Assembly (NCBI GenBank): GCA_044344255.1
Contig: JBIJDH010000020.1
Location: 85,758 to 149,757 of the forward strand
DNA length: 64,000 bases
Direction of reading: 5' to 3'
DNA from: Myxococcota bacterium
GTDB taxonomy: Bacteria; Myxococcota_A; UBA796; UBA2385
The position numbers and the translations under genes were made by a program. Within the stretch, counting starts at the first letter, position 1. Every line of letters starts with the position of its first letter. Below the pieces are notes generated by a model. The model was not told the DNA's origin. It did not search any database and saw only the letters and a list, made by a program, of their open reading frames with translations. Below are positions 11,401-38,806 of the stretch, in pieces.

Positions 11401-11605
11401 GGCCGAGCTCTGGGAGACGGCCCTCGAGGCCGCCGCCGGCAAGAAGCAGCCCGTGACCGACGCCTACGGCCGCCGCATCCGCCTCTCCCAGCTCCCGCCC
11501 GACCTCCTCGCCCTCACCGACCCGCGCGCCGTCGTCATCGACGGCACCCACCTCCCTGAAGACATCGAGAACTGGTCCGCCTGGGTCGCCCGGGAGCAGC
11601 CATGA
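8498..11605 (+). CDS. Alpha-2-macroglobulin-like protein, N-terminal (MG-domain) chain
   Basis: HVITDRPLYEPG, EPFTLPRFRVEV, LSSDKRVYAPGETATL and VTLIGVDQSL are MG2/A2M_N motifs; N-terminal TM segment; ends before the FPET motif. Confidence 0.8.
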   Translation: MPTCGRCGVAEGSENSTERLKRKGKKVLAWTLGSMGLLALLCASRVTCLSSWALYGVRIPECPSGDLRQTAELEASSLRRNSVGYVTLRASAHYTTGQADQDQSAYVHRLDGELSLVDASGKVTPLEPEDGWDEDGVTLSAQIKLPEVPDGDYTLRGVVSTPIGESTVEAPLPIYAPARVHVITDRPLYEPGNSMAFRAVVLRAADLAPLDGRPGKWIVKDPSGEVLLEEKAPAGEWGVVSGSFPIDREATSGPWTVSWVSGDASADAVVTVEPFTLPRFRVEVTPNQGWYRPGDRPVVTGRVVYSSGAPVAGAAVELNWSVSGDWPPPTDWLEGALPKEAITDNDGRFVLTLPQIPADLQGRSTLSASVAATDPAGDRVGGGLSLLLSEDPLQVTAVTELGDGLVEGFNNRMYLRATTPTGDPLVGTTLRLRPSYDPTAKPREAKTDEDGVAAFQVDPGPAINVVIPAKPYRPPAREPGVSRSNTQALLGNGEDELPLADQLALDRLVGGLQDCARFVSGSENAHVALVIEASGAIRDAVALGRPGECLAAGLRGRSLSATGTTRVYSVDYSITDQDLPKVSYSQDEATGSNGEVSELLNLAVLDARSCLPADLSDTDLGQALLWRVRAGSTVIEPSWASNGEGTALRPDTVACLKERLPPRRLPEPADEDALAVVTFAVSPSPRASAERPQPTTLLGYSFRVSAGEGDEKIGETTLVQRPGTVPNLRIRATPVLAKAGDAVEIELLRGPDFNSELPEKLQMTSPKFKALEVELDKETRKTTFTLPPDAEGWFQVSVMGALARVFVAPKSQLQLELSSDKRVYAPGETATLGLLTTEGGQGVQAAVTLIGVDQSLGQLAPLPGADHMGGLRPKVTTNQAAFDILDGEALSLGRVRGANAAAAVVLRVSDVPQPEDLDRYTSASGRGRFDAVADLTDHFYTVLGELHNAVRAWEKAAGKDEKMKPEKMAELWETALEAAAGKKQPVTDAYGRRIRLSQLPPDLLALTDPRAVVIDGTHLPEDIENWSAWVAREQP

Positions 11606-13986
11606 GCCTCACCGCCCCCCGCGCCCTCCTCCCCCTCGGCCTCTCTGCGGTCGCCCTCGCGGGCTGCGCCGACCGTGAAGCGTCGAAGTCGGCCCCCCCC
11701 GCGCCGATGGAGGAGAGCGTCGAGCAGGACCTCCGCGCGATCGGCTACGACGGCGCTGGCATCGCCACCGGCGGCGCCGCGGCCCCCGCCTCCGCCGCGC
11801 CGATGGCCAAGAAAGAGGTTGGCCGGGTCGGCCGAAAGATGAAGGCCGACAAGCCCGCCGACGAGGCCCCGATGGCGGAGGCAGCGCCGAGCGAGGCCGA
11901 CTCCGAGGGCGGCGAGGCGGCGCCCTCCCGCTCCTGGTTCCCCGAGACCTTCCTCTTCCAGCCCCGGGTGGTGACCGACCGCGACGGCCGGGCCTCCGTC
12001 CCCGTGCGCATCCCCGACCGGCTCACCACCTGGCGCGTCCTCGGCCTCGCCTGGTCCCGACAGGGCGGTCAGTCCGGCGACACCACCGAGCTGCTCGGCA
12101 CCCTGCCCGTCTATGTAGACCCTGTCCTCCCCGCCTTCCTCAAGGCCGGTGACCGCCTGCGCCTGCCCATCCAGGTCGTCAACACCACCGACGGCCCCCT
12201 CACCGTGCCCCTGCGGGTCAACGCCGGCGGCGCCGCGCACCTCGCGAGCGCTGGCACCGTCTCTCTCCCCGCCGGGGGGAGCCGCGTCTCCTATGTCGAG
12301 CTCTACGCCGAGCAGGCCGGCACCGTCTCCCTCGAGGCCTCTATCGGCAGCAAGGACGCCGTCGTGCGCACCTTCCCCGTCGAGCCCGTCGGCCGCAAGC
12401 TCGAGCAGACCCGCGGCGGCACCCTCGCCGCCCCCCGACAGGTCGAGCTCATCGGCGCGAGTGACCTGGACCCCGCCAGCGCCCGCGTGCGCCTCCTCGT
12501 CTATCCGGGCGCCAAGGCCATCCTCCAGAGCGAGCTCGCCACGGCGTTGGACCGCGGTGGGGTCGCCTCGACAGGCTATTCGCTGCTCCTATCGGGACAG
12601 GGCGCCGCCCTACTGCAGTCCCTCGGCGTCCCCGTCTCCGCCACCGGCGCCGACGATGACGCCCGCGCCGCCGCTTCCGCCCTCCACGACATGGGCCTCC
12701 TCGCCGGCCAGCGGGCCGTCCGCTTCGGCCGCGCGCCGGACACCGCCAGCGCCGCCCTCCTCGCCGAGGGCTGCCTCGCCCACCCCGAGAGCCCCGTCAT
12801 CGCGCGCCTGGGCGAGCGACTCCTCGGCCAGCTCGTCGCAGGGCAGCGCCCCGACGGCACCTTCGGCGGGGACAGCAGCGGCGCCTGGACGCTCCAGCGC
12901 CTCCTCCTCGCCACCGCAGACGCCGCCGCCACCGTCCGCCGCGCCGCCCAGTCGCCGACCGGGGACAGAGACCTCGACGCCAAACGAAAGCGCGACGCCG
13001 CCGCCGTCTCCCTCCGCGCCGGCGGCGCCTTCGAGCGCTACGCCGCCCAGGTCACCGACCCCTACACCGCCGCCGCCATCCTCCGCTCCGGCGCCATCTC
13101 CGGCGACCTCGCCGCCACGCTCCTCGAGCGGGTCGAGTCCGGCCTCGTCGAGAACCTCGACGGCTCCCGGTCCCTCCCCGTCCCCGAGGGCGTCGTCCGC
13201 GCCGACGGTGCGGTCCCCTCCGGCGTCGAGGCCACCGCGATGGCCGTCCTCGCCCTCGAGGGCCGCGGAAAGGACGACACGGTCGCCGATCTCGGCGCCT
13301 CCCTCCTCGGCGCCTGGCGCCCCGGCCGCGGCTGGAGCGACGGCCGGACAGACCTCCTCGCGCTGCAGGCCGTGCTCGCCCTCTTCAAAGACCCCATGCC
13401 GAACACGGTGACCGTCACCCTCTCGATGGACGGCGCCCCGGTCGGAAAGAAGGTGCTGGGCCTCGCCGAGCTCGATGAGGTCTCCCTCCTCGACCTCCCC
13501 GCCACCGCCGCCCGCGGCCTCCACACCTGGACCGTCTCCGCCGAGCCCGCCGTCCCCGGCCTCGGCTTCGCCCTCACCCTCGAGAGCTGGGTGCCCTTCG
13601 TCGCCACCCCCCAGAACGGCCTCGAGCTCCAGGTCACCACCGGAGAGGCGCCGGCGGTCGGTCGAAAGGTGCCCGTGATGGTGCAGGCCGCCGCACCCGC
13701 CGGGATGGCCCTCGTCTATCGACAGGAGCTCCCGGCTGGCGTCGTCCCCGATATGGACAGCCTCCAGGCTCTCGTGACGAGCGGCACGATCTCGAAATTC
13801 GACACCGAGGACGGCGCCCTGTCCTTCAACATCCCCGCCCTGTCACCCGGGCAGGTCTTCTCCGCCGGCTATGCGCTCGTACCCACCCTCGCAGGCACGC
13901 TCCACAGCGGGCCCGCCTCGCTCAGCCCCGCGGCGGACCTCGACGTGGCCGCGCTCTCTGTGCCGGGGGTGTGGACGGTGCGGTGA
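11602..13986 (+). CDS. Alpha-2-macroglobulin-like lipoprotein, C-terminal chain, copy 1 (no CxEQ thioester)
   Basis: Lipobox LAGC; RSWFPETFLFQPRVVTD...IPDRLTTWR; LPAFLKAGD; QRPDGTF helical domain; ATGA overlap with the upstream gene. Confidence 0.85.
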   Translation: MSLTAPRALLPLGLSAVALAGCADREASKSAPPAPMEESVEQDLRAIGYDGAGIATGGAAAPASAAPMAKKEVGRVGRKMKADKPADEAPMAEAAPSEADSEGGEAAPSRSWFPETFLFQPRVVTDRDGRASVPVRIPDRLTTWRVLGLAWSRQGGQSGDTTELLGTLPVYVDPVLPAFLKAGDRLRLPIQVVNTTDGPLTVPLRVNAGGAAHLASAGTVSLPAGGSRVSYVELYAEQAGTVSLEASIGSKDAVVRTFPVEPVGRKLEQTRGGTLAAPRQVELIGASDLDPASARVRLLVYPGAKAILQSELATALDRGGVASTGYSLLLSGQGAALLQSLGVPVSATGADDDARAAASALHDMGLLAGQRAVRFGRAPDTASAALLAEGCLAHPESPVIARLGERLLGQLVAGQRPDGTFGGDSSGAWTLQRLLLATADAAATVRRAAQSPTGDRDLDAKRKRDAAAVSLRAGGAFERYAAQVTDPYTAAAILRSGAISGDLAATLLERVESGLVENLDGSRSLPVPEGVVRADGAVPSGVEATAMAVLALEGRGKDDTVADLGASLLGAWRPGRGWSDGRTDLLALQAVLALFKDPMPNTVTVTLSMDGAPVGKKVLGLAELDEVSLLDLPATAARGLHTWTVSAEPAVPGLGFALTLESWVPFVATPQNGLELQVTTGEAPAVGRKVPVMVQAAAPAGMALVYRQELPAGVVPDMDSLQALVTSGTISKFDTEDGALSFNIPALSPGQVFSAGYALVPTLAGTLHSGPASLSPAADLDVAALSVPGVWTVR
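11896..13986 (+). repeat. ~2.1-kb direct repeat, copy 1 (copy 2 at 36716-38806)
   Basis: Near-identical nucleotide sequence at a constant offset of 24,820 bp; no indels seen. Confidence 0.97.
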
Positions 13987-14115
13987 GTCGACAAGCTGCG
14001 CAGGGTCATGGAGACGGGCGAAGGCCAACCAGAGAGCGCCTCCGCCATCGGGTTCGCGACTATTGCTCCGGTGAGCAGGCTGCCCCGAAGGACGCGGCCT
14101 GCCGAGGGCCCGACC

Positions 14116-16095
14116 ATGCTCCGCTTCCATCGTCTGCTGCATGTCCCATCCCGTGCGCCCTTCGTTGGGGCAACACTGCTGCTGTTCGGCTGCTTCGCGG
14201 AGCGCAGCAAGTGGAGCCCCGCGTGGGAGGGGTTCGAGGCTCAGCACCAGGAGACCCTGTACGTCGGGCACGCGCTCACCGCCGGGGCGCCGATCGTGGA
14301 CAAGGACGGCTCGGCGTACGTGACCGTCGCCCCCGAAGCCCGGTGTAAGGAGGCGAAGTACGGCCAGCGGATGCGGGTCGACCACCGGGCAAAGACCCCC
14401 GGCCAGGTGATCGCGTTGAACGCCACGATCGCAGGAACAATTATCGGAGCCGGGACGGCCATCTACGGAGCGACCCAGACCGACGTCGAGCTCGCCATCA
14501 TCGGCGGCAGCGTATGGGCTGTCGCGCTGCCGCTCCCCCTAATCTTCGACGGGGCGAAGGCCAGGGTACGCGTCCAGCCCCAGCTGACCCGAAGGGTGCC
14601 CATTCAAGACATGTCGACATGGGCGACCGACAAGTCCAGCCCCTGCGCCGACGAGATCGCTGTGCCGACCCTCTCGCCCCGAGCCGGTCTCGTGGTGGGG
14701 CTGCCCGATGCGGCCGCGAAGCTCGGCGGCGCCGTGCCCGTCTCCTGGGAGGCTCCCGGTACGGTGAAGCTCTCCGGCGAAGGCATGCGGCCGCTGAAGT
14801 CCTGGACCCATGAGTGCGCCCTCGAGGAAGAGGTCACCCTCTGGATCGGCCTGGGCGGACTGCCGGCGGGGATCGACCGCTCGTCAACGCCGCCGGACCT
14901 CACCTGGGTGAACGAGCACCGGGGGTCTCCATCCGCGGCGCAGTCCGGGGCGGCGACGGTGAAGCTCAACTTCGGGCCACCGACACGGGGAGAATTGGTG
15001 GGGGACGGGCCGCTGATGGACGCCGCTGATCGAGCCGCCTATGGGGCCCGCGCGGCCATCGCGAGGGCGGACCGAGCGGAACAAGAGCGTCAGGCGCTCG
15101 CCGCCGAGAAAGCCCAGCGGGAACAGCTGCAGGCGGAGCAGGAGGCCGAGGAGCGGCGCGCCCAACAGGTGGCGCAGCTCCAATGGGAAGCCGAGCAGCG
15201 GGAGGCCGCCGAGCGGGCGGAGCTCCGTCGGCAGGCCAACGTGAACGCGCTCATCACCGGCCTTCAGACCTTCACAGAGGAGGTGGGTGAGGTCGCGCGG
15301 ACGAATGACGAGAAGCTGCGCCAGCTCCAGGACGACGCGCGGGCCCAACAAGCCTCCAAGCAGGCGGCGCAAGACCGCGCCGCGATCGAGCGGGCGTAGG
15401 CCGACCAATCGGCCGCCACAGAGAGGATCATGGCCCAGGAAGCGCGGGCGGCACGCCTTCAAGAGGAGGCGCAAGCTCGACGCGCGCGAGCGGAGCTCCC
15501 GCCCACGATGAAGCCGTCGGGCCCCCAGCCCACACCAAGCAGCGATGGAAACACAGCCTCAAACCAACCAGCAGGACTCACCGTGTCCATCGTACGGGGC
15601 TCCACGCCTGAAGATCAACGAACGCGCGCCGCGGAGGCCGCCGCCCGCGCCGCAGCGCGGGCCCGGGCCGACGCGGAGGCCCAGGCGACTCGGGCCGCCA
15701 TCCCGACCGGCGCCGCCATCTGGGGCGTCCGTGCTCCCGCCGCCACCGCCCCGAGCGCAGCCTCCCCACCCACGCCTCGCGCGGGCTGCGGGGGTCCAGC
15801 CGACGAGCGGCGGGCTCCCTTGCCGAGCTGTGTTCGCGTCCTGTCCCAAGTCGCTGGTGAGGCCTGCGGCCAAAGGACGAGCCTCGCGGTGAGAGTGGTC
15901 AATCAGTGCGACCAACGCATCGTGGCCGAGATCTGCTTCCCTCGTGCCAATGGCACGCCGTCCTGCGGGATGCGCGGAATGTTGCCCGACGCGACGTGGT
16001 CCACCGACCTCTGCGCCGACTCGGATGGCACCTGGACCTACCGAGCGGCCTTCTCCGCCGAGGGTAAGCGGGACTGGGTGTGTTTCTACGAGTGA
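14116..16095 (+). pseudogene. Putative lipoprotein with coiled coil and Cys-rich C-terminal domain, interrupted by one in-frame TAG (15397-15399)
   Basis: Lipobox LFGC. ORFs 14008-15399 and 15430-16095 are in the same frame and the Ala/Glu/Gln/Arg coiled coil continues across the stop (IERA*ADQSAATERIMAQEARAARLQEE). Confidence 0.65.
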
Positions 16096-16134
16096 GCGCA
16101 GCTCTATGAAAGGCGGCATCCGCCCCGACCAGGG

Positions 16135-21648: not shown

Positions 21649-22458
21649 CTATTTCGGTGGCGCCTCGGGGGCCTTCGTGTCCTTCCCCGCCTCACCCTCG
21701 ACGGGCGGCTTCGGCGCCTTGGCGGCCTCCGCGGCGGGGTTCGGGGGCGGCGGCACGTTCTCGCCGGCCTTGGGCGTGCCGCCCGTCGGCGCCTTCATGT
21801 CCCGGACCTCCCAGGGGATCTTGTCATTCGACTTGTTCCCCTTGGAGCAGTCGATATCCTTCAGCTCGATGTCTTTGCCCACGATCTTGTCCACGGAGAC
21901 CACGGCCACCACGTCGTCCGGGGAGGGGCCGTCTCCGCTCTGATCGACGTTGACGATGAGGTAGAGCGCCTCGCTGAGGGTGGCGGGCGCCTTGACGCTG
22001 AAGGTGCCATCGGTGGTCTTGGCGATCTCCATGGCCTCGGGGACGGTCTCTCCATCGCGCTTGCTCAGGCGCACGAAGTCGATCTGCGCGGCGGTGGCGT
22101 CTTTGAGGGTGCCCGAGAGGGTGATGAGCTTGCCGTCTTTGGCGAGCGAGGCGAGACCAGGGATGGTCACGTTCGGGTTACCCTCAGCAGGAGGCTGGGT
22201 CTCAGAGAGCGAGGGATCACCACCGGGGGGAGGTGCCGAGCCGTCTGCGGGAGCACCATCCGGCCCACCTGCGGCGGGGGGAGCGCCGCCCTCCCCACCC
22301 GGGGGCTGACCAGGGGCCCCGCCGGGCTGACCACCGGGCGCGCCAGGAGCGGCAGGCGGGGGACCCACGGGCTGGCCGGTCGAGGCCTCATCGGGGGGCT
22401 GGGGACATGCGGCCAGGAGGGCCAGCAGGGCGCAAGAGGCGAGCACATGAAGACGCAT
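21649..22458 (-). CDS. Hypothetical lipoprotein with Pro/Gly linker and small beta-rich domain
   Basis: Lipobox LAAC; DQSGDG Ca-loop-like motif; genome-like codon usage. Confidence 0.75.
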   Translation of the reverse strand: MRLHVLASCALLALLAACPQPPDEASTGQPVGPPPAAPGAPGGQPGGAPGQPPGGEGGAPPAAGGPDGAPADGSAPPPGGDPSLSETQPPAEGNPNVTIPGLASLAKDGKLITLSGTLKDATAAQIDFVRLSKRDGETVPEAMEIAKTTDGTFSVKAPATLSEALYLIVNVDQSGDGPSPDDVVAVVSVDKIVGKDIELKDIDCSKGNKSNDKIPWEVRDMKAPTGGTPKAGENVPPPPNPAAEAAKAPKPPVEGEAGKDTKAPEAPPK

Positions 22459-22665
22459 GCGGACTCCGTATTCCGATGGGTTTTACGCCCCCGGCCACCC
22501 GATGTCAACCGCCGGTCAGCGGCCTGGGTCCCGCGGGTCCCCTCGAAGCGGACGACCCGCTCCTTCGTCGGGATCGGCCCGAGCACCTTCACCGGCGCAG
22601 TCATCGCGCCGATCTCACAAGGCCCTGACCTCGATTCGAAGGGACCTGGATATCATGATCCGCGT

Positions 22666-24156
22666 ATGCCCAAGAGTCGCCTCGTCGCTACCCGTCGCCT
22701 CGCTCGCAGCCTCATCCGCTGCTCGTCCTCGCTGTTTTCGGCGACGCTCTTGTCTTGTCTCGTCGCCTGCGGCTCTTCTTCCGAAGAGGCCACCTCGGCT
22801 GTTCAGCCAGACCTCATCCTCTTTCTGGTGGACGGCCTGCGCGACGGCGCGGGCCCCCTCGGTAGGGCCGCCGATGCGCTTCGCGCAGAGCTCGACGATG
22901 AAGGCAGACATCGGTTTACGGCCGCTTATACGCAGTCGATTGAGCCCTATGTGGCGCTTGGCTCGCTCCTCAGCGGACGGTACCCCTCCGCCATTCCGCT
23001 CTGCGGACGCCCCCACTATACGGGGCGGGAGTCCGCCGATCCCTGGTGCCTCCCGCTGCCCGAGCCGGTGCATACCCTCCCAGAGGTGCTCGGCTACTAC
23101 GGATACGAGACCGCATTTTTCAGCACGGTGGCCCCGGATCACCCTAGCCTCATCCGCGGCTTCGGTACGAAGGGCGTACCCGATCCGGGAGCGGCGAACA
23201 CCGAGCTCACCGTGCTTCATCAGTCGGCGCAGGTCTGGTGGGAGGCCCACGCGGGGGCGCCTCGCCTCCTTGTGGTGCAGGCCCCCCTCGATCTCGGCTC
23301 TCTTCGCCCCTTGATCCTCGACATCGACCATGGCGCCTTCGCCACGGCCTGGGGCCAAGAGCGGGCCAATCCCCTGCCGAACACCGATCCCGACCGGTAC
23401 AAGCAGCCCTATGGCGGCGACGCGCCGGATTGGAGCCGAGTGGACCAGGCCTATGATGCCCTCGCTGCCGAAGCCGGTGCGGGTATCCAGAGCCTCCTCA
23501 GCTCCTTGTCCGATCTGGGCACCGAGGTCGAGCGGCCACGCTGGGTTGTCACCACATCCCTCCGCGGCGTATCGCTCGGCGAGCTCAGCGGAACCGAACA
23601 CGCCGAGCAGCTCGTCCCCGCAGAGGCCAGCCTCCTGCTGGAGCGGACCGTGCACGTCCCCTTGGATGTGTACCATGAGGGGGGCTCTGAGGACACGGTG
23701 GATTACCCGGTAGAGCTGGTCGATATCGCGCCCACCTTCTATGCCCTCGGCCAGGCTGTGCTCCCCGTGGAGGGAGCCGGCCAGGATCTCCTTGGCCCGG
23801 CACCCGCCTCACCCCGGGCCTACGCCGAATACGGCGACATGCTCCTCCTTCGAAGGGGGACCGATCTGGTCAACTTCCGCGCCGAGCGCCATGGCACGAG
23901 CAGCCTCAGCCCCACCCTGACCTTGGCCCTCGTCGATCCTCAGCACACCGAGCGGCCGGGCACCTTTCGTCTGAGCCGGGTGAGCACCGATCCCAACCAG
24001 GAGCATGACCTCTCCCGCTCCAACGAGGCGTCGGTCAAGATGTTTCAGGCCGAGCTCGTTGAGATTCGCCAGGGAGTCGGCGCGCCTCCGCCGGATGCGC
24101 TCACCCCGGAGCGGGTGAAGCAGCTCCAGGATCTCCGCGCCAATGGATACTGGTAG
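22666..24156 (+). CDS. Sulfatase/alkaline-phosphatase-superfamily lipoprotein with degenerate active site
   Basis: PDLILFLVDGLR, AAYTQS...SLLSGRYPS, TLPEVL...GYETA, HVPL, VELVDIAPT, TDPNQEHDL; no C/S-x-P-x-R. Confidence 0.75.
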   Translation: MPKSRLVATRRLARSLIRCSSSLFSATLLSCLVACGSSSEEATSAVQPDLILFLVDGLRDGAGPLGRAADALRAELDDEGRHRFTAAYTQSIEPYVALGSLLSGRYPSAIPLCGRPHYTGRESADPWCLPLPEPVHTLPEVLGYYGYETAFFSTVAPDHPSLIRGFGTKGVPDPGAANTELTVLHQSAQVWWEAHAGAPRLLVVQAPLDLGSLRPLILDIDHGAFATAWGQERANPLPNTDPDRYKQPYGGDAPDWSRVDQAYDALAAEAGAGIQSLLSSLSDLGTEVERPRWVVTTSLRGVSLGELSGTEHAEQLVPAEASLLLERTVHVPLDVYHEGGSEDTVDYPVELVDIAPTFYALGQAVLPVEGAGQDLLGPAPASPRAYAEYGDMLLLRRGTDLVNFRAERHGTSSLSPTLTLALVDPQHTERPGTFRLSRVSTDPNQEHDLSRSNEASVKMFQAELVEIRQGVGAPPPDALTPERVKQLQDLRANGYW

Positions 24157-25011: not shown

Positions 25012-25051
25012 GTCCCTTGCCCAGGACGGGACACCGAGCGGGTGGCCCAGT

Positions 25052-26167: not shown

Positions 26168-26196
26168 GCGGGGCCTCTGTCGAAGGGTCGGATGGG

Positions 26197-26232
26197 GTTA
26201 GAGACCACAGATGAGTTAGAGACCACAGATGA
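26197..26232. repeat. Perfect 18-bp tandem duplication covering the cytochrome gene stop codon
   Basis: gttagagaccacagatga x2. Confidence 0.9.
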
Positions 26233-26644
26233 GATAGATATTGAGCAGATATTTCTCATCGTCGGTGAGCCCACCGGCGGGAGGCATGTCCTCCTGCTCC
26301 AACATGCGCACGATGATCCGTTCCTTCCAGGTACGGATGTCGGCCTCTGTGTCAAAGGTCACCGCTTCTGGGGCCCCGTATCGTTTCGGTGTATCGGTCG
26401 CATGGCAGCCCTCACAATGGGCCAGAAATTTCCCTTGTGCGTACCCCTCCCAGGTGACCGCCGGCGCGCTCTCGCAGTTGTTGGTGGCGGTGTCATCGGC
26501 GCCCGCGCTGTCACCCCGGGTGGAGGCGCTGTCCTCGGGCGTCGCGGTGCCCGCCCCGGCAGCGCAGCCAACCAGACCGGCGCCCAACAAGACCGCGCAC
26601 AAGGAGGGCGCTCCCGGTCGCTGCGGCTCAGGCGATGGCGGCAT
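26216..26644 (-). CDS. Small c-type cytochrome lipoprotein
   Basis: Lipobox LVGC; CEGCH heme motif; distal MPP. Confidence 0.8.
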   Translation of the reverse strand: MPPSPEPQRPGAPSLCAVLLGAGLVGCAAGAGTATPEDSASTRGDSAGADDTATNNCESAPAVTWEGYAQGKFLAHCEGCHATDTPKRYGAPEAVTFDTEADIRTWKERIIVRMLEQEDMPPAGGLTDDEKYLLNIYLICGL

Positions 26645-27914
26645 GAACAGGCTCCACGCCGGGCAGGAGCTCCTCAGAGTCTACGCCAGCGAGGGTCAGG
26701 AGGGTGGCGCCGATATGGTCGGGGAGCAGGGAGACGCCGCTCTCGGTCGTCTCGCCGGAGAGCAGATCCACCCTCTCGCCCCCACAGCTCTCGTCATAGG
26801 CCCCGATGGCCCGGCCACCCGCCACCCCGGCGCCGACCAACATACAGGAGGTGTATGTCCAGTGGTCCTTCCCGCCTCGATAATTATACTGCGGATATCG
26901 GCCCATCTCGGACATCACGACGATGGTGACCTCTTCGGCGAGCGTTCGTTCCACCTTTCCGGGCAGGGAGTCGAGGGTCTCCATGGTGGAGACGATCGCA
27001 TCGAAGAGCTCCTCGAAATTGAGGGCCTGTTGGAAGTCATTCGAGTGGGTGTCCCACCCGAGGCCCTTCCAGCCGAGATGCCGCACCATGCCACACCGGG
27101 CGAGGTCATTGGCGAAGGCATTGACGAGGAGGTCCATCCCCTCGGTGAGGGTGTTGGAGGAGCCGAAGCGCAGGCTGTCGGCCAGGCCGCCGATACGGTC
27201 CATCCGCTCCTGTACACCTATGGAACGATCCAGCAGGAGCTTCTCGCGCCCCCGACCCGCCGCAGCGGCGAGCCGGTTCACCCGGGCCGTCACGAAGGCA
27301 TCTTCGAGGGCCTCCTGAGAGGCCGGGGGCAGGCTCAGCGCCTGGTCGGCCCGGAGAAAGGCATCGCCGCTGATGAGATCGGGGAGCTGCCCCGAGCTGC
27401 CCACCCGGACCACCGCCGAGCCGCGATCATAGGTGAAGCTCGGCCCCGACAGGTGGATGAGGGGCAGCAGCAGGTCGGCGCCTGTGGAGGCGGCGATGAG
27501 CGAGGGCCAGTCATCGGAGGAGGGGAGCGAGGTGCCGGTCATCGCCAGCCGCACACAGGCGTCATGGGCGACCGAGCGCACCTCGAAGCCGTTGATGAAG
27601 CAGGTGCGGTCACCATATTGCTCCATGAAGGTGGTGACGCTGGGCCGACCCTCACTCTGAACATAGGGGATCCCATGGGCATTCGCCTCCACCGCATCGA
27701 CCTCCATATCGATGCCGGCGGCGCCGAAGAGCGGGGCAAAGAGGCAGGTCTGGTCCCAGCCTCCCTGCGCGAAGACGAAGAGAAAGCGCCGCGCCGAGGG
27801 CTCCACCGCTCGACCGACCCCGGGCATCCACAACATCGCGGTCGGGAGGAGGGCCGAGGAGGCCGCGAGCAGCCCTCGACGAGACAGCGCGGAGGGTGGG
27901 GGCCGTTTGAGCAT
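26628..27914 (-). CDS. DUF1501-family protein with Tat signal
   Basis: SRRGLL; FLFVFAQGGWD; GWDTH; VVMSEMGR; KDHW; LVGAGVAGG. Confidence 0.85.
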   Translation of the reverse strand: MLKRPPPSALSRRGLLAASSALLPTAMLWMPGVGRAVEPSARRFLFVFAQGGWDQTCLFAPLFGAAGIDMEVDAVEANAHGIPYVQSEGRPSVTTFMEQYGDRTCFINGFEVRSVAHDACVRLAMTGTSLPSSDDWPSLIAASTGADLLLPLIHLSGPSFTYDRGSAVVRVGSSGQLPDLISGDAFLRADQALSLPPASQEALEDAFVTARVNRLAAAAGRGREKLLLDRSIGVQERMDRIGGLADSLRFGSSNTLTEGMDLLVNAFANDLARCGMVRHLGWKGLGWDTHSNDFQQALNFEELFDAIVSTMETLDSLPGKVERTLAEEVTIVVMSEMGRYPQYNYRGGKDHWTYTSCMLVGAGVAGGRAIGAYDESCGGERVDLLSGETTESGVSLLPDHIGATLLTLAGVDSEELLPGVEPVHAAIA

Positions 27915-27968
27915 CGCTACCTCGACCGGAACAGGAGACCGAAAGACAGGTTTCAATACGCCCAGAAT

Positions 27969-29675
27969 TCAGTACGTCCAGAAGGCGGGATCTCGGATCC
28001 AGACGGTGAGGAGGCTCGTCCAGGCCGCGAGCGGACCCTGCTCGGACTCCACGGCGGTCCACAGGGCCTCGTCCCGCACCAGCTCCACGGCATCCGGCCT
28101 CTGGCCATGGATGCGTCGATGCAGCGCGGTGAGCTCCGCGGTGAAGGCCTCGTCGCCGGGCCGGTCATCGAGGGTGATGGCCCCGAAGAGGGAGCGCGCC
28201 GCCCCCTCCGTGCCGAGCTCCTTCGCCACCACGGTCTCCGCGGCGGCCTCGGCGAGGCGCTTCATCACGAGGGCCCGGGTGAGCGTGGGCTCGCGCTCCG
28301 GCTGGGTGGTGTCATGGCCATCCATGCCGCCGGCCAAGACCCGGAAGCCGTAGACATCGTTCGTCAGCTCGTCGTAGCCGGTCCAGGTCCACTTGAAGCC
28401 GGTGAGATCGGCGACCGCCGACTCGAGCACCTCCGGGGCGAGGAGACGGCGGGTGGAGAGGCGGTTCTCCTCCTCCGCAGGGGCGCCGTCGAGCAGGCTC
28501 CCCACCCGATAATCCTCCCCCTTCACGAGCGCCTGGATCAGCACCTTGTGTCGCAGCCCCCCCGCCTCGAAGGTTGCCTGCACCGACTGGAGCGTTGAAA
28601 AATCACCGAGGTCTATCGGGCGCCGCCAGAGCGCCTTGGCCATGGTCTGCACGGCGCAGCTCTTGAAGCGCGGGTCAGCGGCCAGCATGGGGCCCAGATC
28701 CGCGGCGTCCGCCATCGGCTGACCGAACCAGGCCATATCCTCATCGAGGTAGTATTTTCCAAGCCCCTCCCTCTCGGGGTGGTACCGCACCACATCCTCC
28801 GGAGAGTACATATCGAACCACCAGAAGCCGAACATGGAGGCGGCGAGGGGATCGAGGGTGCTATGGCAGGTGACACAGGCAGGGTTGGTCTCGATGGCCT
28901 CATCGACGCTGCCTCCGTCGAGGATCTCAACCGCGTCGAACTGGATGGGGCGCGTGAGATAGTCTTCGCAGAGGAAGAGGCGGGACAGGGCCGCGGCCCG
29001 GCTGCGATTGAAATTGCTCGGGGTGGTGAAGTACCGCCACCACAGGCCGTTCGTGGTCACGACACCGCCGGCCGGGCGATCATCGGTGTATCGGGCCACC
29101 CGCCACTCCTCCCCGACATCGGTCTCGTCCAGGGGCTCCAGGGGATAGAGCCAGAAGAGCATGTCATTCGCCATCGTGTAATCGGCGGTGGCCACGTCGG
29201 TCCAGGGCAGATCGCGCGTGGCGATATGGGCCATGAGACGGGGGGGCTCGTTGCCAATGGCGCGCAGGTAGGCGAAGTCCTGGTCGGGCGGCAGCCCCCA
29301 CTCCCAGGAGCGGATGTTGAATTCCTCATTTCTTGTGAGGAGCTGCTCCGCGAAGAGATCGACCAGCCGCCCCTCGTAGCGGGGGTCGTCCAGAAAGCCC
29401 TCGATCATGCTGTCCACGAGAGCGGGATCGGCCGCTACCGCATCGAGCTCGGCGAGGGTGGGCACCACGCCGCGGAGGTCGAGGCTGGCCCGGCGGAGCA
29501 GCGCAGGAGCGGGGAGCGAGGCCCCATAAAAGGTCGCCGCCGGGCGTGAGTCCGGTGGGGAGTCCGGTGGGGAGCCCTCCCCTCCTTCATCGGGGACCGT
29601 CGAGGGGGGGGTGGGACCGCTCTCGCACGCGACCATCAGGAGGGGCAGCCAGACAAGGTGTAACCGGCGAGTCAT
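27969..29675 (-). CDS. PSD/DUF1549-DUF1588-like heme-binding lipoprotein
   Basis: Lipobox-like MVAC; LLRRASLDLRGVVPT; CVTCHSTLDPLA; immediately upstream of the DUF1501 gene. Confidence 0.75.
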   Translation of the reverse strand: MTRRLHLVWLPLLMVACESGPTPPSTVPDEGGEGSPPDSPPDSRPAATFYGASLPAPALLRRASLDLRGVVPTLAELDAVAADPALVDSMIEGFLDDPRYEGRLVDLFAEQLLTRNEEFNIRSWEWGLPPDQDFAYLRAIGNEPPRLMAHIATRDLPWTDVATADYTMANDMLFWLYPLEPLDETDVGEEWRVARYTDDRPAGGVVTTNGLWWRYFTTPSNFNRSRAAALSRLFLCEDYLTRPIQFDAVEILDGGSVDEAIETNPACVTCHSTLDPLAASMFGFWWFDMYSPEDVVRYHPEREGLGKYYLDEDMAWFGQPMADAADLGPMLAADPRFKSCAVQTMAKALWRRPIDLGDFSTLQSVQATFEAGGLRHKVLIQALVKGEDYRVGSLLDGAPAEEENRLSTRRLLAPEVLESAVADLTGFKWTWTGYDELTNDVYGFRVLAGGMDGHDTTQPEREPTLTRALVMKRLAEAAAETVVAKELGTEGAARSLFGAITLDDRPGDEAFTAELTALHRRIHGQRPDAVELVRDEALWTAVESEQGPLAAWTSLLTVWIRDPAFWTY

Positions 29676-30706
29676 GGTCGCCCCTGCGCAGCCACGAGGG
29701 TGGCGAGCGCGTCGAGCAGCGCCGGCCCCGGACAGAGCTCCCCCTGGTCCTGCCCATGCCAGGTGAAGGGCCCACAACCGCCGCATTCGGACAGGGTGAC
29801 CGAGAACCAATGGCCCCCTGGATCTCGAACACCGATGAGCCCCATCGGATCTCCACTGCAGACCGTCGTGTCGGTGACGAGCCCGGTGAACATGATATCC
29901 GCGGCCGGATTTCCAATCCCACCATCCAGCTGGAAGCGGGAGGTGTCCTCCCCATCCGAGGCGATCACAAAGAGGCCGACCTCCGCCTCGGCGCCGAGCC
30001 AGGTGGGATCGTCGTCCCGATGAAAGACCCCACCGGTGGCCGAGGTCCACTGATAGGTGCCGGTCTCATCAACGCTCCCGTCGAGCTCCAGCGTGCCGGC
30101 CCCCATGAGCTCCCGTCCGTCGACCTCGGTGATGGTGTAGTTGGTGAGCGCGTGAATGACCCAGGACATATCCGTATGTTCTTCAAAGTATTGGCTGAGC
30201 CCATGATACCGCACACCGGCGATCGAGGTACAATCCCCCTGCCACTCCCCCTGGGCGCCGATGTCGTCCTCATCGTCCTTGAGAGGGCAGGAGGAGTCAG
30301 ACCAGGTCATCAGCTCCTCATACGCATCCCGAATGGGGATGGCGTTGGGGATGCCGCCCTCCAGCGCCGCCTCAAGGGCCGCTCCGGCCTCCTCCGCCGT
30401 CCAGACGGGGCTCCCGGGATCGATCCACGCTCCGCCCTCGGAGGCGCTGTCGGTGCCACCCCCATCCCCCGCGTCACCGCCATCGCCACCGTCCCCGCCG
30501 TCGGCCGGCTCTCCTTCGTCCTCGGTGAGGTGACACAGGCCGTCCGACTCGAACCGCGTGGAGCCCGCGGGGCAGGGGGCCGGGCCACAGCCCCCCATCG
30601 CGACGATCAGGAAGCCGGACGCAGCGCCCCAAGTCAGCCGGAAGCCGTCCCACCAGCCGGGGCGGGGGCCCAGCAAGCGCCTGGGGTGTTGAAGGGGGCT
30701 CGACAT
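29672..30706 (-). CDS. Hypothetical acidic Cys-containing exported protein or lipoprotein
   Basis: Hydrophobic segment then GGC, DGGDGG linker, several Cys pairs; ATGA overlap with the downstream gene. Confidence 0.7.
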   Translation of the reverse strand: MSSPLQHPRRLLGPRPGWWDGFRLTWGAASGFLIVAMGGCGPAPCPAGSTRFESDGLCHLTEDEGEPADGGDGGDGGDAGDGGGTDSASEGGAWIDPGSPVWTAEEAGAALEAALEGGIPNAIPIRDAYEELMTWSDSSCPLKDDEDDIGAQGEWQGDCTSIAGVRYHGLSQYFEEHTDMSWVIHALTNYTITEVDGRELMGAGTLELDGSVDETGTYQWTSATGGVFHRDDDPTWLGAEAEVGLFVIASDGEDTSRFQLDGGIGNPAADIMFTGLVTDTTVCSGDPMGLIGVRDPGGHWFSVTLSECGGCGPFTWHGQDQGELCPGPALLDALATLVAAQGRP

Positions 30707-31077
30707 TCATTGACTCTACCACGGGTCCCGGGGAGCTGCCCCGCGCAGGCCAGCGCCCCATGGAGGGCCGAGCTCAGCCGCCTGGAGGTTGGGTCCAGGT
30801 CTCTCCCTCGCTCCGACCCGGATGGTGGATCTCCTCTCCTCTTCGGGGTAGCCCTCCACGTCCTCTTGAGGAGGTGGCAGGTGGACGGCGCGCGACTCCG
30901 GGCGATGTTGAACGGGATGCTCAAACAGGGCGTGGGCGGCTGGACGACCCTGCACGTCCGCCGCTCCCTCGCCGACGCCGTCGCCGAGGCGGCCGACAAG
31001 GACAGGACGGCCGGCCACGCCCAGGTGGCCGCCCTGCTGGGCGCGCCCTTCCAAGCTCTGCCGCCCGCGAGCCCTCC

Positions 31078-34250: not shown

Positions 34251-35837
34251 ATGAACTCCTCGCCGCTGCTGCTCCTCACCCTCTGCCTGTCCTGTGGCGG
34301 GGAGACCCGCCCTACCCCACCCGCACCGGTCGGACCGCCGCCGGGCAAGCCCGCGGGTTCAGGTGGCCCCGGAACGCCGGGGGGGAGGGCATCTTTCGAC
34401 CCCGGGCCGGAGAACCTCACCGACGCCTGGACCGCCGAGCTCGGCGCCGCCGTCGATCCCATACCCCAACCGCCAACCTGCCCGGACGCCGATCAAGACG
34501 GCTTCTTCGCCGCCACCGCCTGCCCGGGTGCCGATGCCGCCACCCTGGACTGCGATGACCAGGACCCCACGGTCACCCCCGCGACCGAGCGCTGGGTCCG
34601 GCCCGGGCCCTTCCTCATGGGCAGCAGCTCCACTCAGGCCGGGGCCGACGAAAAGCCCGTCCACGTCGTGCAGATGTCGGGCTACTGCCTCGAGCGAACC
34701 GAGGCTTCGGTGGCCGATCTCGCCGCCTGGTTCCTCTCTACCGGCCGGAAGCCCGAAGGCGCCGATGTGCGCAGCCTCGACACCGACGGCCGGGCCGAGC
34801 TTGGCCGGGAGGCCCAGCCCGCCGAAGGGCTCACCTGGGCCGAAGCAGACGCCTTCTGTCGCAGCCGCGGCAAGGCCCTCCCCACGGAGGCCCAGTGGGA
34901 GAAGGCAGCCCGCGGCGGCTGCGAGCTCGGAAGCAGCCCCACAGCCTGTGACCCGGCCGACCTCCGGCCCTATCCCTGGGGGGACGCGGCCCCCACCTGC
35001 GCCCTCGCCAATCACCAGCACACCGGGGGGGGAGTGCCTACGCTCTGTGTCTCCGATACGAGTCCGGCGAATGATCCCGCCGCCAACCTGGGCCCGTATG
35101 GGCATCAGAACCTGGCCGGCAATGTGTGGGAATATACGGCCGACCTCTGGCACCCCCATGTGTATGGCCCCGGCCGGAGAGACCCCGGTGGCCCGACCCC
35201 GGGCGCCTCTGCGCTGCCCCATGTGTTACGCGGCGGCGGCTGGAACACCTTCTCCACCAATATGCGGGTGGCCAATCGATTCACCGACCTCGTCATGGGC
35301 TCCGCGGTGGGTGTCCGCTGTGCGCGCCCCACGGTGGAGCCGGTTCCTGACCAGCCGGTTCCGCTTCAAATGGTCAAGGTGTCGGGCACCCTGAAGCGGG
35401 ATGAGGGCAGCTTCACGGGCCGCGCCGTCTATGTTGTCGCCTTCGACAATGAGGACGCTGACCCCCAAAGCGGAATGGTACCGCCGGGGCGCTCACCGGT
35501 CGCGGAGCGGCGCTTCCCGCCGAGCGGCGCGACGGAGCAGGAATTCAGCATCGACGTCCCGGCCGGGGCCAGCTATCGAATTTTCGCCTCCTTCGACGAC
35601 GGCACAGGGAATGACAAAGACGCCTATCGCTCCTCCTCGGGGAGCGGCGGCATCGGGATGGTGCAAGAGAGCATCTCAACCGTCTCCGGCCCGGTCGAAG
35701 GGATCTCCATCACCATCGCAAAGATGCCCAAGCCGCCTCCCGGAGGTCGTCCGCCGGGGCCACCGCCCGATGGACAGGGTCCGCCGGGGCCACCGCCCAA
35801 TGGACAAGGTCCGCCGAATGGGAGCCCGCCTCGGTGA
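34251..35837 (+). CDS. FGE-sulfatase-domain lipoprotein with MopE-like Cys/Asp motif
   Basis: Lipobox-like CLSC; CPDADQDGF...DCDDQDP; LPTEAQWEKAARG; LAGNVWEY; RGGGW; GVRCAR. Confidence 0.88.
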   Translation: MNSSPLLLLTLCLSCGGETRPTPPAPVGPPPGKPAGSGGPGTPGGRASFDPGPENLTDAWTAELGAAVDPIPQPPTCPDADQDGFFAATACPGADAATLDCDDQDPTVTPATERWVRPGPFLMGSSSTQAGADEKPVHVVQMSGYCLERTEASVADLAAWFLSTGRKPEGADVRSLDTDGRAELGREAQPAEGLTWAEADAFCRSRGKALPTEAQWEKAARGGCELGSSPTACDPADLRPYPWGDAAPTCALANHQHTGGGVPTLCVSDTSPANDPAANLGPYGHQNLAGNVWEYTADLWHPHVYGPGRRDPGGPTPGASALPHVLRGGGWNTFSTNMRVANRFTDLVMGSAVGVRCARPTVEPVPDQPVPLQMVKVSGTLKRDEGSFTGRAVYVVAFDNEDADPQSGMVPPGRSPVAERRFPPSGATEQEFSIDVPAGASYRIFASFDDGTGNDKDAYRSSSGSGGIGMVQESISTVSGPVEGISITIAKMPKPPPGGRPPGPPPDGQGPPGPPPNGQGPPNGSPPR

Positions 35838-36324
35838 GCGCCGAGCGACTGCTCCTGACCCTCAGCCTCCTTGGGGCCTGCGGGGGCGCCTCGCAGGAGG
35901 CCCCGGTCGCCCGTGCGCCCTCCACCCCCCGGCGGGGCTACATCTCGGGCGGAGACGGCAGCGCCGCTGGGCGCGTGGTGACCTTCCGCGGCCGGACGAG
36001 GTGCAGGACGACACCTGGCGCGCGGCGGCCCACTACACCCCCGAGCTCCGCCTCATCGGCGCCGAGCCCGCCTTCGACCTGGGTAGCTACCACCTCGGAG
36101 AGGCCGCCCGCGGGCTGCTCGCCCTCCGCGCCCGCCCCGAGGACGACGCCCTCGTCGCCCCCCTCCGCCACCCGCCGGTGACGCCCGTGCGCGCCCCGAC
36201 GGCAGAGGCCCTCTGCGCGCCCTGGCAGCGCGCCTGGGCCGGCTCACAGGAGCGCCCCGTCGAGGAGCTCCCCGACCTGGCACAGCGCGTACTGAGCGTG
36301 GGTCGGTATCCGTCCCCGGCGTAA
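35834..36324 (+). pseudogene. Frameshifted or deleted lipoprotein remnant sharing its signal peptide with the downstream A2M copy 2
   Basis: Starts SAERLLLTLSLLGACGGASQEAPV (35834 frame); the coding-like tail DEVQDDTWRAAAHY...YPSPA* is in a different frame. Confidence 0.55.
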
Positions 36325-36373: not shown

Positions 36374-38806
36374 ATGCGCCCCCGCAGCTCCCGCCCCTGC
36401 AGCTCCCGTCCCTGCAGTCCCGGCCCCCGCAGCCCTCGCCCCGAGCGCCTGCTGCTGACCCTCAGCCTGCTCGCGGCCTGCGGGGGGGTCTCGCAGGAGG
36501 CCCCCGTCCCCACCTCGGCGCGCGACGAGGGCAAACAGATGGCCCAGGAGCTCGGCTACGCCGAAGAGGAGGCGCAGGCGGAGGCCCCGTCGCCCAAGGG
36601 GGCCGGCGGGCCGAGGCGGAGCCAGAACCGAGCGGCGCCCGCCCGGGGCGGCGGGACGAAGAAGGAGTCGAAGGACGCCGAGAAGGCAGACCCCGCCGTC
36701 CAGGGGGACTCTCCTGCCGACCCCGAGGGCGGCGAGGCGGCCCCCACCCGCTCCTGGTTCCCCGAGACCTTCCTCTTCCAGCCCCGCGTGGTGACCGACC
36801 GCGACGGCCGGGCCTCCGTCCCCGTGCGCATCCCCGACCGGCTCACCACCTGGCGGGTGCTCGGCCTCGCCTGGTCCCGACAGGGCGGTCAGTCCGGCGA
36901 CACCACCGAGCTGCTCGGCACCCTGCCCGTCTATGTAGACCCTGTCCTCCCCGCCTTCCTCAAGGCCGGTGACCGCCTGCGCCTGCCCATCCAGGTCGTC
37001 AACACCACCGACGGCCCCCTCACCGTGCCCCTGCGGGTCAACGCCGGCGGCGCCGCGCACCTCGCGAGCGCTGGCACCGTCTCTCTCCCCGCCGGGGGGA
37101 GCCGCGTCTCCTATGTCGAGCTCTACGCCGAGCAGGCCGGCACCGTCTCCCTCGAGGCCTCTATCGGCAGCAAGGACGCCGTCGTGCGCACCTTCCCCGT
37201 CGAGCCCGTCGGCCGCAAGCTCGAGCAGACCCGCGGCGGCACCCTCGCCGCCCCCCGACAGGTCGAGCTCATCGGCGCGAGTGACCTGGACCCCGCCAGC
37301 GCCCGCGTGCGCCTCCTCGTCTATCCGGGCGCCAAGGCCATCCTCCAGAGCGAGCTCGCCACGGCGCTGGACCGCGGTGGGGTCGCCTCGACAGGCTATT
37401 CACTGCTCCTGTCGGGACAGGGCGCGGCCCTCCTCCAGTCCCTCGGCGTCCCTGTCTCTGCCGCTGGCGCAGACGACGACGCCCGCGCCGCCGCCGCCGC
37501 CCTCCACGACATGGGCCTCCTCGCCGGCCAGCGGGCCGTCCGCCTCGGGCGCGCGCCGGACACCGCCGCCGCTGCCCTCCTCGCCGAGGGCTGCCTCGCC
37601 CACCCCGAGAGCCCCGTCATCGCCCGCTTGGGCGAGCGACTCCTCGGCCAGCTCGTCGCAGGGCAGCGCCCCGACGGCACCTTCGGCGGTGACAGCAGCG
37701 GCGCTTGGACGCTCCAGCGCCTCCTCGTCGCCACCGCCGACGCCGCCGCCACTGTCCGCCGCGCCGCCCAGTCGCCGACCGGGGACAGGGACCTCGACGC
37801 CAAACGCAAGCGCGACGCCGCCGCCGTCTCCCTCCGCGCCGGCGGCGCCTTCGAGCGGTACGCCGCCCAGGTCACCGACCCCTACACCGCCGCCGCCATC
37901 CTCCGCTCCGGCGCCGTCTCCGGCGACCTCGCCGCCACGCTCCTCGAGCGGGTCGAGTCCGGCCTCGTCGAGAACCTGGATGGCTCCAAGTCCCTCCCCG
38001 TCCCCGAGGGCGTCGTCCGCGCCGACGGTGCGGTCCCCTCCGGCGTCGAGGCCACCGCGATGGCCGTCCTCGCCCTCGAGGGCCGCGGAAAGGACGACAC
38101 GGTCGCCGATCTCGGCGCCTCCCTCCTCGGCGCCTGGCGCCCCGGCCGCGGCTGGAGCGACGGCCGGACAGACCTCCTCGCGCTGCAGGCCGTGCTCGCC
38201 CTCTTCAAAGACCCCATGCCGAACACGGTGACCGTCACCCTCTCGATGGACGGCGCCCCGGTCGGAAAGAAGGTGCTGGGCCTCGCCGAGCTCGATGAGG
38301 TCTCCCTCCTCGACCTCCCCGCCACCGCCGCCCGCGGCCTCCACACCTGGACCGTCTCCGCCGAGCCCGCCGTCCCCGGCCTCGGCTTCGCCCTCACCCT
38401 CGAGAGCTGGGTGCCCTTCGTCGCCACCCCCCAGAACGGCCTCGAGCTCCAGGTCACCACCGGAGAGGCGCCGGCGGTCGGCCGAAAGGTGCCCGTGATG
38501 GTCCAGGCCGCCGCACCCGCCGGGATGGCCCTCGTCTATCGACAGGAGCTCCCGGCTGGCGTCGTCCCCGATATGGACAGCCTCCAGGCCCTCGTGACGA
38601 GCGGCACGATCTCGAAATTCGACACCGAGGACGGCGCCCTGTCCTTTAACATCCCCGCCCTGTCACCCGGGCAGGTCTTCTCCGCCGGCTATGCGCTCGT
38701 ACCCACCCTCGCAGGCACGCTCCACAGCGGGCCCGCCTCGCTCAGCCCCGCTCAAGATCTCGAGGTGGCGGCACTGTCCGTCCCAGCAGTGTGGACGGTG
38801 CGCTGA
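36374..38806 (+). CDS. Alpha-2-macroglobulin-like lipoprotein, C-terminal chain, copy 2
   Basis: Lipobox LAAC; from EGGEAAP onward about 10 aa differences from copy 1; different N-terminus. Confidence 0.85.
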   Translation: MRPRSSRPCSSRPCSPGPRSPRPERLLLTLSLLAACGGVSQEAPVPTSARDEGKQMAQELGYAEEEAQAEAPSPKGAGGPRRSQNRAAPARGGGTKKESKDAEKADPAVQGDSPADPEGGEAAPTRSWFPETFLFQPRVVTDRDGRASVPVRIPDRLTTWRVLGLAWSRQGGQSGDTTELLGTLPVYVDPVLPAFLKAGDRLRLPIQVVNTTDGPLTVPLRVNAGGAAHLASAGTVSLPAGGSRVSYVELYAEQAGTVSLEASIGSKDAVVRTFPVEPVGRKLEQTRGGTLAAPRQVELIGASDLDPASARVRLLVYPGAKAILQSELATALDRGGVASTGYSLLLSGQGAALLQSLGVPVSAAGADDDARAAAAALHDMGLLAGQRAVRLGRAPDTAAAALLAEGCLAHPESPVIARLGERLLGQLVAGQRPDGTFGGDSSGAWTLQRLLVATADAAATVRRAAQSPTGDRDLDAKRKRDAAAVSLRAGGAFERYAAQVTDPYTAAAILRSGAVSGDLAATLLERVESGLVENLDGSKSLPVPEGVVRADGAVPSGVEATAMAVLALEGRGKDDTVADLGASLLGAWRPGRGWSDGRTDLLALQAVLALFKDPMPNTVTVTLSMDGAPVGKKVLGLAELDEVSLLDLPATAARGLHTWTVSAEPAVPGLGFALTLESWVPFVATPQNGLELQVTTGEAPAVGRKVPVMVQAAAPAGMALVYRQELPAGVVPDMDSLQALVTSGTISKFDTEDGALSFNIPALSPGQVFSAGYALVPTLAGTLHSGPASLSPAQDLEVAALSVPAVWTVR
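36716..38806 (+). repeat. ~2.1-kb direct repeat, copy 2
   Basis: Matches 11896-13986. Confidence 0.97.

Follow-up and report, generated by a model that had tools for sequence, protein, structure and literature searches.

We analysed a window of 64,000 nucleotides from a Myxococcota bacterium (assembly GCA_044344255.1, contig JBIJDH010000020.1, positions 85,758 to 149,757 of the forward strand; coordinates below are those of the window). It holds one N-chain gene and two C-chain genes of a split alpha-2-macroglobulin (A2M). The two C-chain genes encode nearly identical bodies, each preceded by an unrelated disordered segment at the position of the A2M bait. Judged by its sequence, the pair is a member of a two-gene, thioester-less A2M family of Myxococcota, and we report as a new observation that surplus C-chains accompanying one N-chain recur among relatives. 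The single N-chain probably pairs with either C-chain, which would give two predicted protease-responsive particles differing only in their lipid-anchored disordered segment. The genes and their parts are as follows.

8498 to 11605, + strand: N-chain gene, 1035 amino acids (aa), single copy in the genome, Pfam MG2; counterpart of the complement beta chain, with profile matches to A2M, A2ML1, the C3/C4/C5 beta chains and YfhM.
Within 8498 to 11605, + strand: N-chain parts, namely an N-terminal hydrophobic anchor or signal, macroglobulin (MG) domains, the pre-bait half of MG6 (residues ~803-860) and a helical tail.
11602 to 13986, + strand: C-chain gene copy 1, 794 aa, Pfam A2M; its start overlaps the N-chain stop by 4 nt.
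11602 to 11667, + strand: copy-1 lipoprotein-type signal, predicted from sequence to end at Cys22.
11668 to 11895, + strand: bait-position segment 1, predicted to be disordered, with KK and RK pairs.
11896 to 13987, + strand: shared body of copy 1, with the RSWFPET motif (11929-11949), post-bait MG6 half, MG7, CUB, a helical TED-like domain and MG8.
12562 to 12573, + strand: lost thioester position, VAST at residues 321-324, which aligns to CFEQ of the single-chain protein P0255.
36374 to 38806, + strand: C-chain gene copy 2, 810 aa, 24.8 kb from copy 1, with no adjoining N-chain gene.
36374 to 36481, + strand: copy-2 lipoprotein-type signal, predicted to end at Cys36, with GAGG upstream of the ATG; lengthened by 15-nt repeats.
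36482 to 36488, + strand: run of seven G (G7) directly after the copy-2 lipobox Cys, one base longer (a frameshift) in sequencing runs X18, X19 and X20.
36482 to 36715, + strand: bait-position segment 2, which carries RR and KK pairs, has no relation to segment 1 and is 95% identical to the P0001 segment.
36716 to 38807, + strand: shared body of copy 2; its differences from copy 1 are clustered and leave identical tracts of 507 and 492 bp.

Self-BLAST of the window, which has a GC content of 72%, returned one long repeat, 11896-13987 against 36716-38807, extending over 2092 bp at 97.18% identity with 59 mismatches and no gaps. Across the 697 codons of the C-chain body there are 41 silent differences and 12 amino acid changes, and the two bodies are 98.5% identical, in line with an earlier note on this DNA that had described near-identical bodies of ~695 aa. 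Each of the two open reading frames (ORFs) carries a single Pfam A2M domain. In contrast, the mature segments of 77 and 80 aa are 25% identical, and their local alignment scores no better than 1000 shuffles (z -1.0; 89% score as high). Variation is confined to the N-terminus, a point that the same note had asked to have checked, and both peptides that it quoted as largely unrelated are present. The segments have the family anatomy in common, with a lipobox, a short 'L..IGY/ELGY' stretch, a basic patch and an acidic Ala/Pro tail, and no alignable sequence. By tblastn, the genome (G000; 8.18 Mb in 83 contigs, 95% complete) contains one N-chain gene and two C-chain genes, so that what had been noticed for the N-chain in the window holds for the genome as a whole. 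The other three A2M-domain genes of this genome encode single chains in open frames of 1911-2119 aa, two with the CxEQ thioester motif and one without.

The second copy is real. Its junction is present in 20 listed lake or river DNA runs; two of these are possible sources of the assembly, and we examined eight of the other 18. Run X3 yielded a 22,875-bp contig with zero differences, at a depth of 31.5, that covers the upstream genes, continues through segment 2 and reaches the body; body contigs are at a depth of 49-60. In run X18, a segment-2 contig (depth 26.2) and a 10,750-bp copy-1-side contig (25.4) both end on a single body contig (40.7), and by-eye comparison showed that the loose letters of the copy-1-side contig read as N-chain codons. 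The 90% protein cluster has 14 members, four of them from the window's own contig; among the 13 with an N-terminus, six carry segment 1, six carry segment 2 and one (P0133) carries a segment 62% like segment 1. Because body depth is doubled and two N-termini join one body in independent short-read runs, the two-copy arrangement is not a misassembly.

To place the pair we searched for relatives and found 588 of the C-chain among the 8000 candidates scored, at about 50% identity, the named ones coming from myxobacteria or unclassified Deltaproteobacteria; a JGI scan gave relatives at 38-54% identity, none of the window's species. The family set comprised 160 best-hit loci (80 from metagenomes and 80 from genomes, the latter recovered with an alignment query, a single-protein query having given none), and 138 of these were assessable. 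In all 138 the N-chain ends no more than 900 bp upstream of the C-chain; the genes overlap by 4 nt in 127 and are fused in none. A Myxococcus xanthus genome is among the loci with the basic N-chain/C-chain pair. When 35 longer hits were examined for a fused form, only P0254 spanned the body. We rejected it as an ancestral fused form: at its junction an off-frame N-chain tail precedes an intact signal peptide, which argues for read-through rather than ancestry.

The profile of the C-chain aligned to human A2M from EEPHTETVRKYFPETW onward, and to the alpha chains of C3 and C5 at alpha'NT, with RSWFPET of the C-chain set against RKYFPET of A2M (within VRKYFPETW). R110 and F113 of this stretch (RxxF) were invariant in 108 aligned C-chain sequences. 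Their equivalents, R732 and F735, are described in the consulted part of a published account (PMC9352918) as conserved residues of alpha'NT that pass through a channel formed by MG2, MG3 and LNK; the same part argues that the trigger runs towards the C-terminus, since complement is without the LNK-ANA link (PMC9352918). The C-chain model has an overall predicted local distance difference test score (pLDDT) of 85.6. It is disordered over residues 9-102 (pLDDT <50), and after residue 102 it comprises what by analogy we name the post-bait MG6 half, MG7, a split CUB, a helical TED-like domain and MG8. Residues 112-793 matched A2ML1 731-1454 with a Z score of 28.2 and a root-mean-square deviation (rmsd) of 8.9 over 635 aligned residues, and the match to the C3 alpha chain gave Z 26.7 and rmsd 9.7 over 632; across A2ML1, TEP1 and C3 overall the values were Z 26-29, rmsd ~9-10 and 617-638 aligned, and C5 was also matched. 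The model fits native forms better than C3b (TM 0.41-0.47 versus 0.25-0.28).

For its part, the N-chain profile matches MG2-MG3 of A2M, of the complement beta chains (C3, C5) and of YfhM, and N-chain residues 803-860 match the pre-bait MG6 half of single-chain A2Ms. The gene break therefore coincides with the furin site of complement, immediately ahead of the cleavable moiety. The variable segment comes directly before the RxxF stretch, and both the model and the profile alignment to A2M, C3 and C5 agree with its proposed location at the bait position. The CxEQ motif was found in none of 120 C-chains, and CFEQ of P0255 aligns to VAST 321-324 of the window C-chain. Together, predicted fold and motif indicate that the pair belongs to the A2M superfamily.

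We next consider how the two bodies come to be so alike. In a FastTree phylogeny of 54 locus bodies and 12 proteins, the window copies are sister bodies (support 1.0) to the exclusion of P0001, which carries segment 2, and P0133, which carries the segment-1-like N-terminus. The bodies of P0001 and P0133, which may come from one organism or from two, are 7 residues apart, and either differs from the window bodies by 23-30 residues. A second strain, seen in X18, X19 and X20, has a single body contig with the same alleles in all three runs, and 13 of the 14 alleles listed for 36856-37414 occur in neither window copy. Sites that truly distinguish copy 1 from copy 2 were resolved at random among X3, X5, X15, X16 and X17. 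The 59 differences are clustered, with the two identical tracts of 507 and 492 bp matched in 0 of 10,000 permutations, and the ratio of nonsynonymous to synonymous substitution rates (dN/dS) between the window bodies is 0.11. That bodies group by strain and not by bait type suggests gene conversion. P0133 and window copy 1 are 62% identical in the segment and ~96% in the body, and P0001 and copy 2 are 95% identical in the segment; faster evolution of segment 1, or a swap, could explain this. A run of eight C lies at 11693-11700, shortly after the copy-1 lipobox Cys, and is a possible slippage site.

The surplus of C-chains is not peculiar to this genome. We counted copies over 154 genomes of the order at an E value of 1e-25, with 5-7 candidates scored per genome, so that misses are possible. 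A C-chain was present in 93 of the 154 genomes and an N-chain match in 98. At least two C genes occurred in 17 genomes; in nine of these an N gene precedes each C gene (G001, G002, G282, G294, G298, G320, G321, G322, G324), and eight of the 93 C-bearing genomes have one N-chain with two or three C-chains (G000, G010, G125, G173, G201, G303, G304, G293). The count of C- versus N-chain paralogs for which the earlier note had called thus shows a one-sided C surplus. Beside the window's own genome, the eight include a distant second copy in G010 (bodies 45% identical), a tandem pair in G125 (72%), tandem pairs in G173, G201 and G303 (50-53%; G173 on a single contig), three C genes in tandem in G304 (98.9% and 64%) and a distant pair in G293 (60%; genome fragmented and 80% complete). 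No N-chain surplus was found in the order's genomes, where all six N-without-C loci that were fetched end at contig edges. Left out of the count were G019 and G306, which hold pieces of one gene, and G323, where the second match lies in a frame of 726 aa that aligns with parts of both chains. A sample of the phylum gave matches in 18 of 251 genomes, all of the window's order, with 4 candidates scored per genome, and was not used for absence claims.

At least five separate C-chain duplications are implied by the tree. Three genomes of genus g36 have second C-chains that are orthologous and form their own clade, with dN/dS of 0.34-0.38, similar to the 0.27-0.36 of the first C-chains, values that high GC inflates; the older surplus C-chains are under purifying selection. 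Baits were at shuffle level in all ten within-genome surplus pairs (z -1.4 to 1.9), and G304 repeats the pattern of the window, with 98.9% identical bodies and unrelated baits. Identity of the MG6 half exceeded that of cross-genome pairs of equal divergence in six tandem one-N pairs (85th-100th percentile) and was not raised in five two-N pairs (4th-69th percentile). This difference is suggestive only, because five of the six tandem one-N pairs come from one genus.

Some loci of the survey are irregular. The 726-aa frame of G323 (L164 185-2173, G323:C537) matches the N-chain front and the C-chain back with an overlap and is a possible internal-deletion fusion or misassembly. Broken single C-chain copies lie at G019:C195 922-2978 (in pieces) and G299:C21 8754-10715 (one TAG).

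These data allow us to propose how the system might work. Both C-chains would be exported as lipoproteins, and either would complete MG6 with the single N-chain. The invariant RxxF stretch would thread the N-chain channel, with the membrane anchor holding this plug, a role played in known members by the ANA domain or by the LNK link. Once a protease had cut the segment, the plug would come free, a conformational change would follow and the C-chain body would be detached from its own anchor. Given the lack of a thioester, protease trapping, if any, would be non-covalent, as in MagD, a thioester-less protein that is cut in its bait and traps protease according to the part of its description consulted (PMC5764988). 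Which proteases act as triggers would be set by the bait sequence, by analogy to human A2M, for which the consulted part of another study reports the same (PMC8267569). As the strain data suggest, gene conversion would keep the bodies alike and stop at the non-homologous bait, so that both C-chains would stay compatible with one N-chain. Copy 2 would be an accessory part, switched off or lost in some strains. We infer chain pairing, trigger and specificity by analogy with the characterised proteins.

A number of observations weigh against this proposal. Three of the six runs that cover the site (X18, X19 and X20, from two studies) have eight G in place of seven behind the copy-2 lipobox, which shifts the frame, and the near-identical extra copy of G304 also has a frame break after the lipobox, possibly an assembly error. 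There is no coupling between copy 2 and the N-chain gene, and a broken lipoprotein gene precedes copy 2. The same genome encodes two thioester-bearing single-chain A2Ms, so breadth may already be covered. Among the relatives, 85 of the 93 C-bearing genomes have no surplus, a second C-chain occurs in the flanks of none of the 160 best-hit loci, and MG6-half identity is not raised in two non-tandem one-N pairs (55th and 5th percentile). Between orthologues whose bodies are still 90% identical, bait identity is down to 33%; with divergence this fast, unlike baits are the default outcome and no selection for diversity is needed. Both window segments have dibasic sites and a similar composition, so that different specificity is not evident. 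Finally, short-read assemblies can mix or collapse body alleles, which makes the phasing used to argue for gene conversion less secure. The earlier note's idea of a modular system with one N-chain and alternative C-chains therefore stands in part: the bait position, the N-terminal-only variation, the real second copy and the one-sided surplus speak for it, and the frameshifts in copy 2 and G304 and the fast default divergence of baits speak against it.

The main rival to the modular alternative-bait reading sees copy 2 as a duplicate or xenologue that is redundant and decaying. In origin it would be an ancient paralogue, or else a chimera whose lipoprotein signal came from a neighbour; its body would have been overwritten by recombination with copy 1, and its unlike N-terminus would be the unconvertible remainder, without distinct purpose. 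We consider this explanation unlikely, though a serious possibility. Two genes lie upstream of copy 2.

34251 to 35837, + strand: FGE-sulfatase-domain lipoprotein gene, upstream of copy 2 on the same strand.
35834 to 36324, + strand: small lipoprotein gene, apparently frameshifted; over its first 74 bp (35838-35911) it matches the signal region of copy 2 (36438-36511) at 86% identity.

Because the broken lipoprotein gene directly upstream has these 74 bp of signal region in common with it, the 5' end of copy 2 may be chimeric, which suits decay. The frameshift of copy 2 in one strain and the broken extra copy of G304 point the same way, as does the repeat expansion in the copy-2 signal, which is lengthened in frame by four 15-nt units (36383-36442) and has five units in X18 and X19. 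The fast default divergence of the segment is likewise what decay would produce, and the body dN/dS of 0.11 could reflect selection on donor alleles only. However, the G7 run is intact in X3, X5 and X15 (X16 and X17 do not span the site), as is copy 2 in those runs. Segment 2 is intact in P0001, P0131 and P0132, and in P0001 it is 95% identical despite 23 residue differences in the body. In other genomes the surplus C-chains are old and intact and evolve under purifying selection, and the surplus is one-sided, with at least five C origins versus no N origin, a weak contrast (one-sided p ~0.03 at equal odds). In assembled contigs of the six runs, seven versus eight G follows strain type, and G or C runs of at least seven number ~1,590 in the genome; because run length follows strain and such runs are common, loss of copy 2 is as likely as switching. 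Phase variation was accordingly not adopted as the main explanation, run length tracking strain.

The small lipoprotein gene is coupled to the FGE gene, with an apparent frameshift near 35990, and in the second strain it has an extra 1-nt deletion at 35925. Its distal part had no match in 153 other genomes of the order and no usable atlas match. No sigma-70-like site was found around copy 2, where a promoter scan is uninformative at 72% GC.

According to a further alternative, which we judge quite improbable, N- and C-chain pair and both C-chains are used, and the segment is a tether or spacer, not a bait, altering the anchoring, sorting, timing or dosage of a non-inhibitor surface complex (sensing, scaffold or cargo). 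Lipoprotein tethers are typically rich in Ala, Gly, Pro and Glu, and the family segments are likewise Ala/Gly/Pro/Glu-rich with few aromatics. The absence of a thioester and the different gene context of copy 2 also fit a tether, as does the variable anchoring: the lipobox pattern occurs in 73 of 138 family segments and a Cys at positions 11-45 in 106 of 138, many others having a longer hydrophobic anchor, and members alternate between the two even inside one array. Against this, the segment lies exactly at the bait position next to invariant plug residues, and a median length of 122 aa with basic patches exceeds what a tether needs. Nor does lack of a thioester speak against a bait, given that C5 is cleavage-activated despite having none. 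The same holds for thioester-less MagD in the part of its description consulted (PMC5764988).

Last, an assembly artefact, with one gene falsely duplicated or wrongly joined to an N-terminus from elsewhere, is largely refuted and very improbable. In its favour, the assembly is in 83 contigs and of a type found in lake metagenomes, and cluster members show mosaic allele combinations. Against it, body depth is doubled, two flanks converge on one body in independent runs and both N-terminal types occur in other assemblies.

Beyond the pairing of one N-chain with two C-chains, we put forward, as a doubtful and deliberately speculative extension, that the split at the bait has made the bait a swappable gene cassette. 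One N-chain would be served by a small repertoire of lipid-anchored bait chains whose bodies are kept compatible by gene conversion, whose baits are exchanged between strains and whose extra copies are toggled by slippage after the lipobox. This would be a DNA-level counterpart of invertebrate bait splicing, tuned against proteases of rivals, prey or predators.

To our knowledge, the known bacterial A2Ms are single chains with one fixed bait. Type I A2Ms (E. coli YfhM/ECAM, Salmonella SaA2M) have the MG/CUB/TED/MG8 architecture and a lipoprotein anchor in common with the window pair. In contrast to the pair, which is split, without thioester and anchored directly before the bait, they are single chains with a thioester and a pbpC neighbour. 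Neither a transglycosylase nor a transpeptidase family was present among the 52 window ORFs scanned; lacking both thioester and pbpC, the pair falls outside Type I. It resembles the Type II protein MagD of Pseudomonas aeruginosa in A2M fold, bait region, absence of CxEQ and envelope location, as far as the consulted part of that source goes (PMC5764988). MagD is one polypeptide encoded in the six-gene mag operon, according to the same part, whereas the pair is two genes split at the bait, each product predicted to be exported, with the bait at a lipoprotein N-terminus and supplied in alternative copies. The pair's neighbours have no Pfam or NCBIfam match, no search with Mag profiles (MagA/B/F) having been made. 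Being encoded by two genes, the pair is not strictly Type II; it likely works like MagD and, by analogy, is built like C3/C5.

Complement C3, C4 and C5 have in common with the pair a two-chain build, a break just before the cleavable moiety and the conserved alpha'NT R and F, and the C-chain model fits alpha chains best. In complement, however, one gene product is cut by furin and has a folded ANA domain and C345C, whereas the pair comes from two genes, has a predicted disordered, lipid-anchored segment and ends at MG8 without C345C. The closest parallel to alternative baits is found in invertebrate A2M/TEP proteins, where a constant scaffold carries several baits, as proposed here. Bait splice variants of tick IrAM and TAM, Drosophila TEP2 and snail BgA2M/BgTEP2 have been proposed to widen protease range, in the consulted parts of two sources (PMC5438962, PMC7016707). 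Invertebrates achieve this by alternative splicing in one gene; in the window there are duplicate C-chain genes for one N-chain gene, with bodies likely homogenised by recombination. Neither a split bacterial A2M nor surplus C-chains were found in the literature titles and abstract beginnings searched, which covered few subscription papers and no supplements, and the consulted part of a 2026 A2M review makes no mention of a split bacterial form (PMC12939704).

If the two-gene form with interchangeable bait chains is borne out, bacteria would gain variety in a protease sensor or trap through combinations of subunits, where ticks and flies rely on splicing. Nature has also provided in the split pair a way to test the plug-in-channel model of triggering: bait and front half are separate chains from the outset, so that restraint is predicted to come from the membrane anchor. 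As culturable myxobacteria such as M. xanthus carry the basic pair, the underlying mechanism is already open to experiment. Natural bait swaps could in addition guide the engineering of selective protease inhibitors.

Several further features of the locus were recorded. A thioester-bearing single-chain A2M (2119-aa frame, CAEQ) lies at G000:C42 ~73,000-76,000, ~20 kb upstream of the split pair and on the same contig as it. The two ORFs that follow copy 1, 14008-15399 and 15430-16095, have no Pfam match, and the first also has no NCBIfam match; over 14008-16095 they match two neighbouring stretches of contig C52 (33% and 41%) and represent a paralogous pair or one split gene. GC content falls to 65-68% at 22000-31000, where sulfatase, FGE, GDSL and DUF1549/DUF1585 genes lie upstream of copy 2, a possible acquired island. 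Elsewhere in the window there are a HipA-like kinase gene at 1619-2878, two tandem aromatic amino acid lyase genes at 45115-48239 that are 63.5% identical over ~1 kb, and short imperfect direct repeats at 43735-43959, with an inverted match near 53211-53286.

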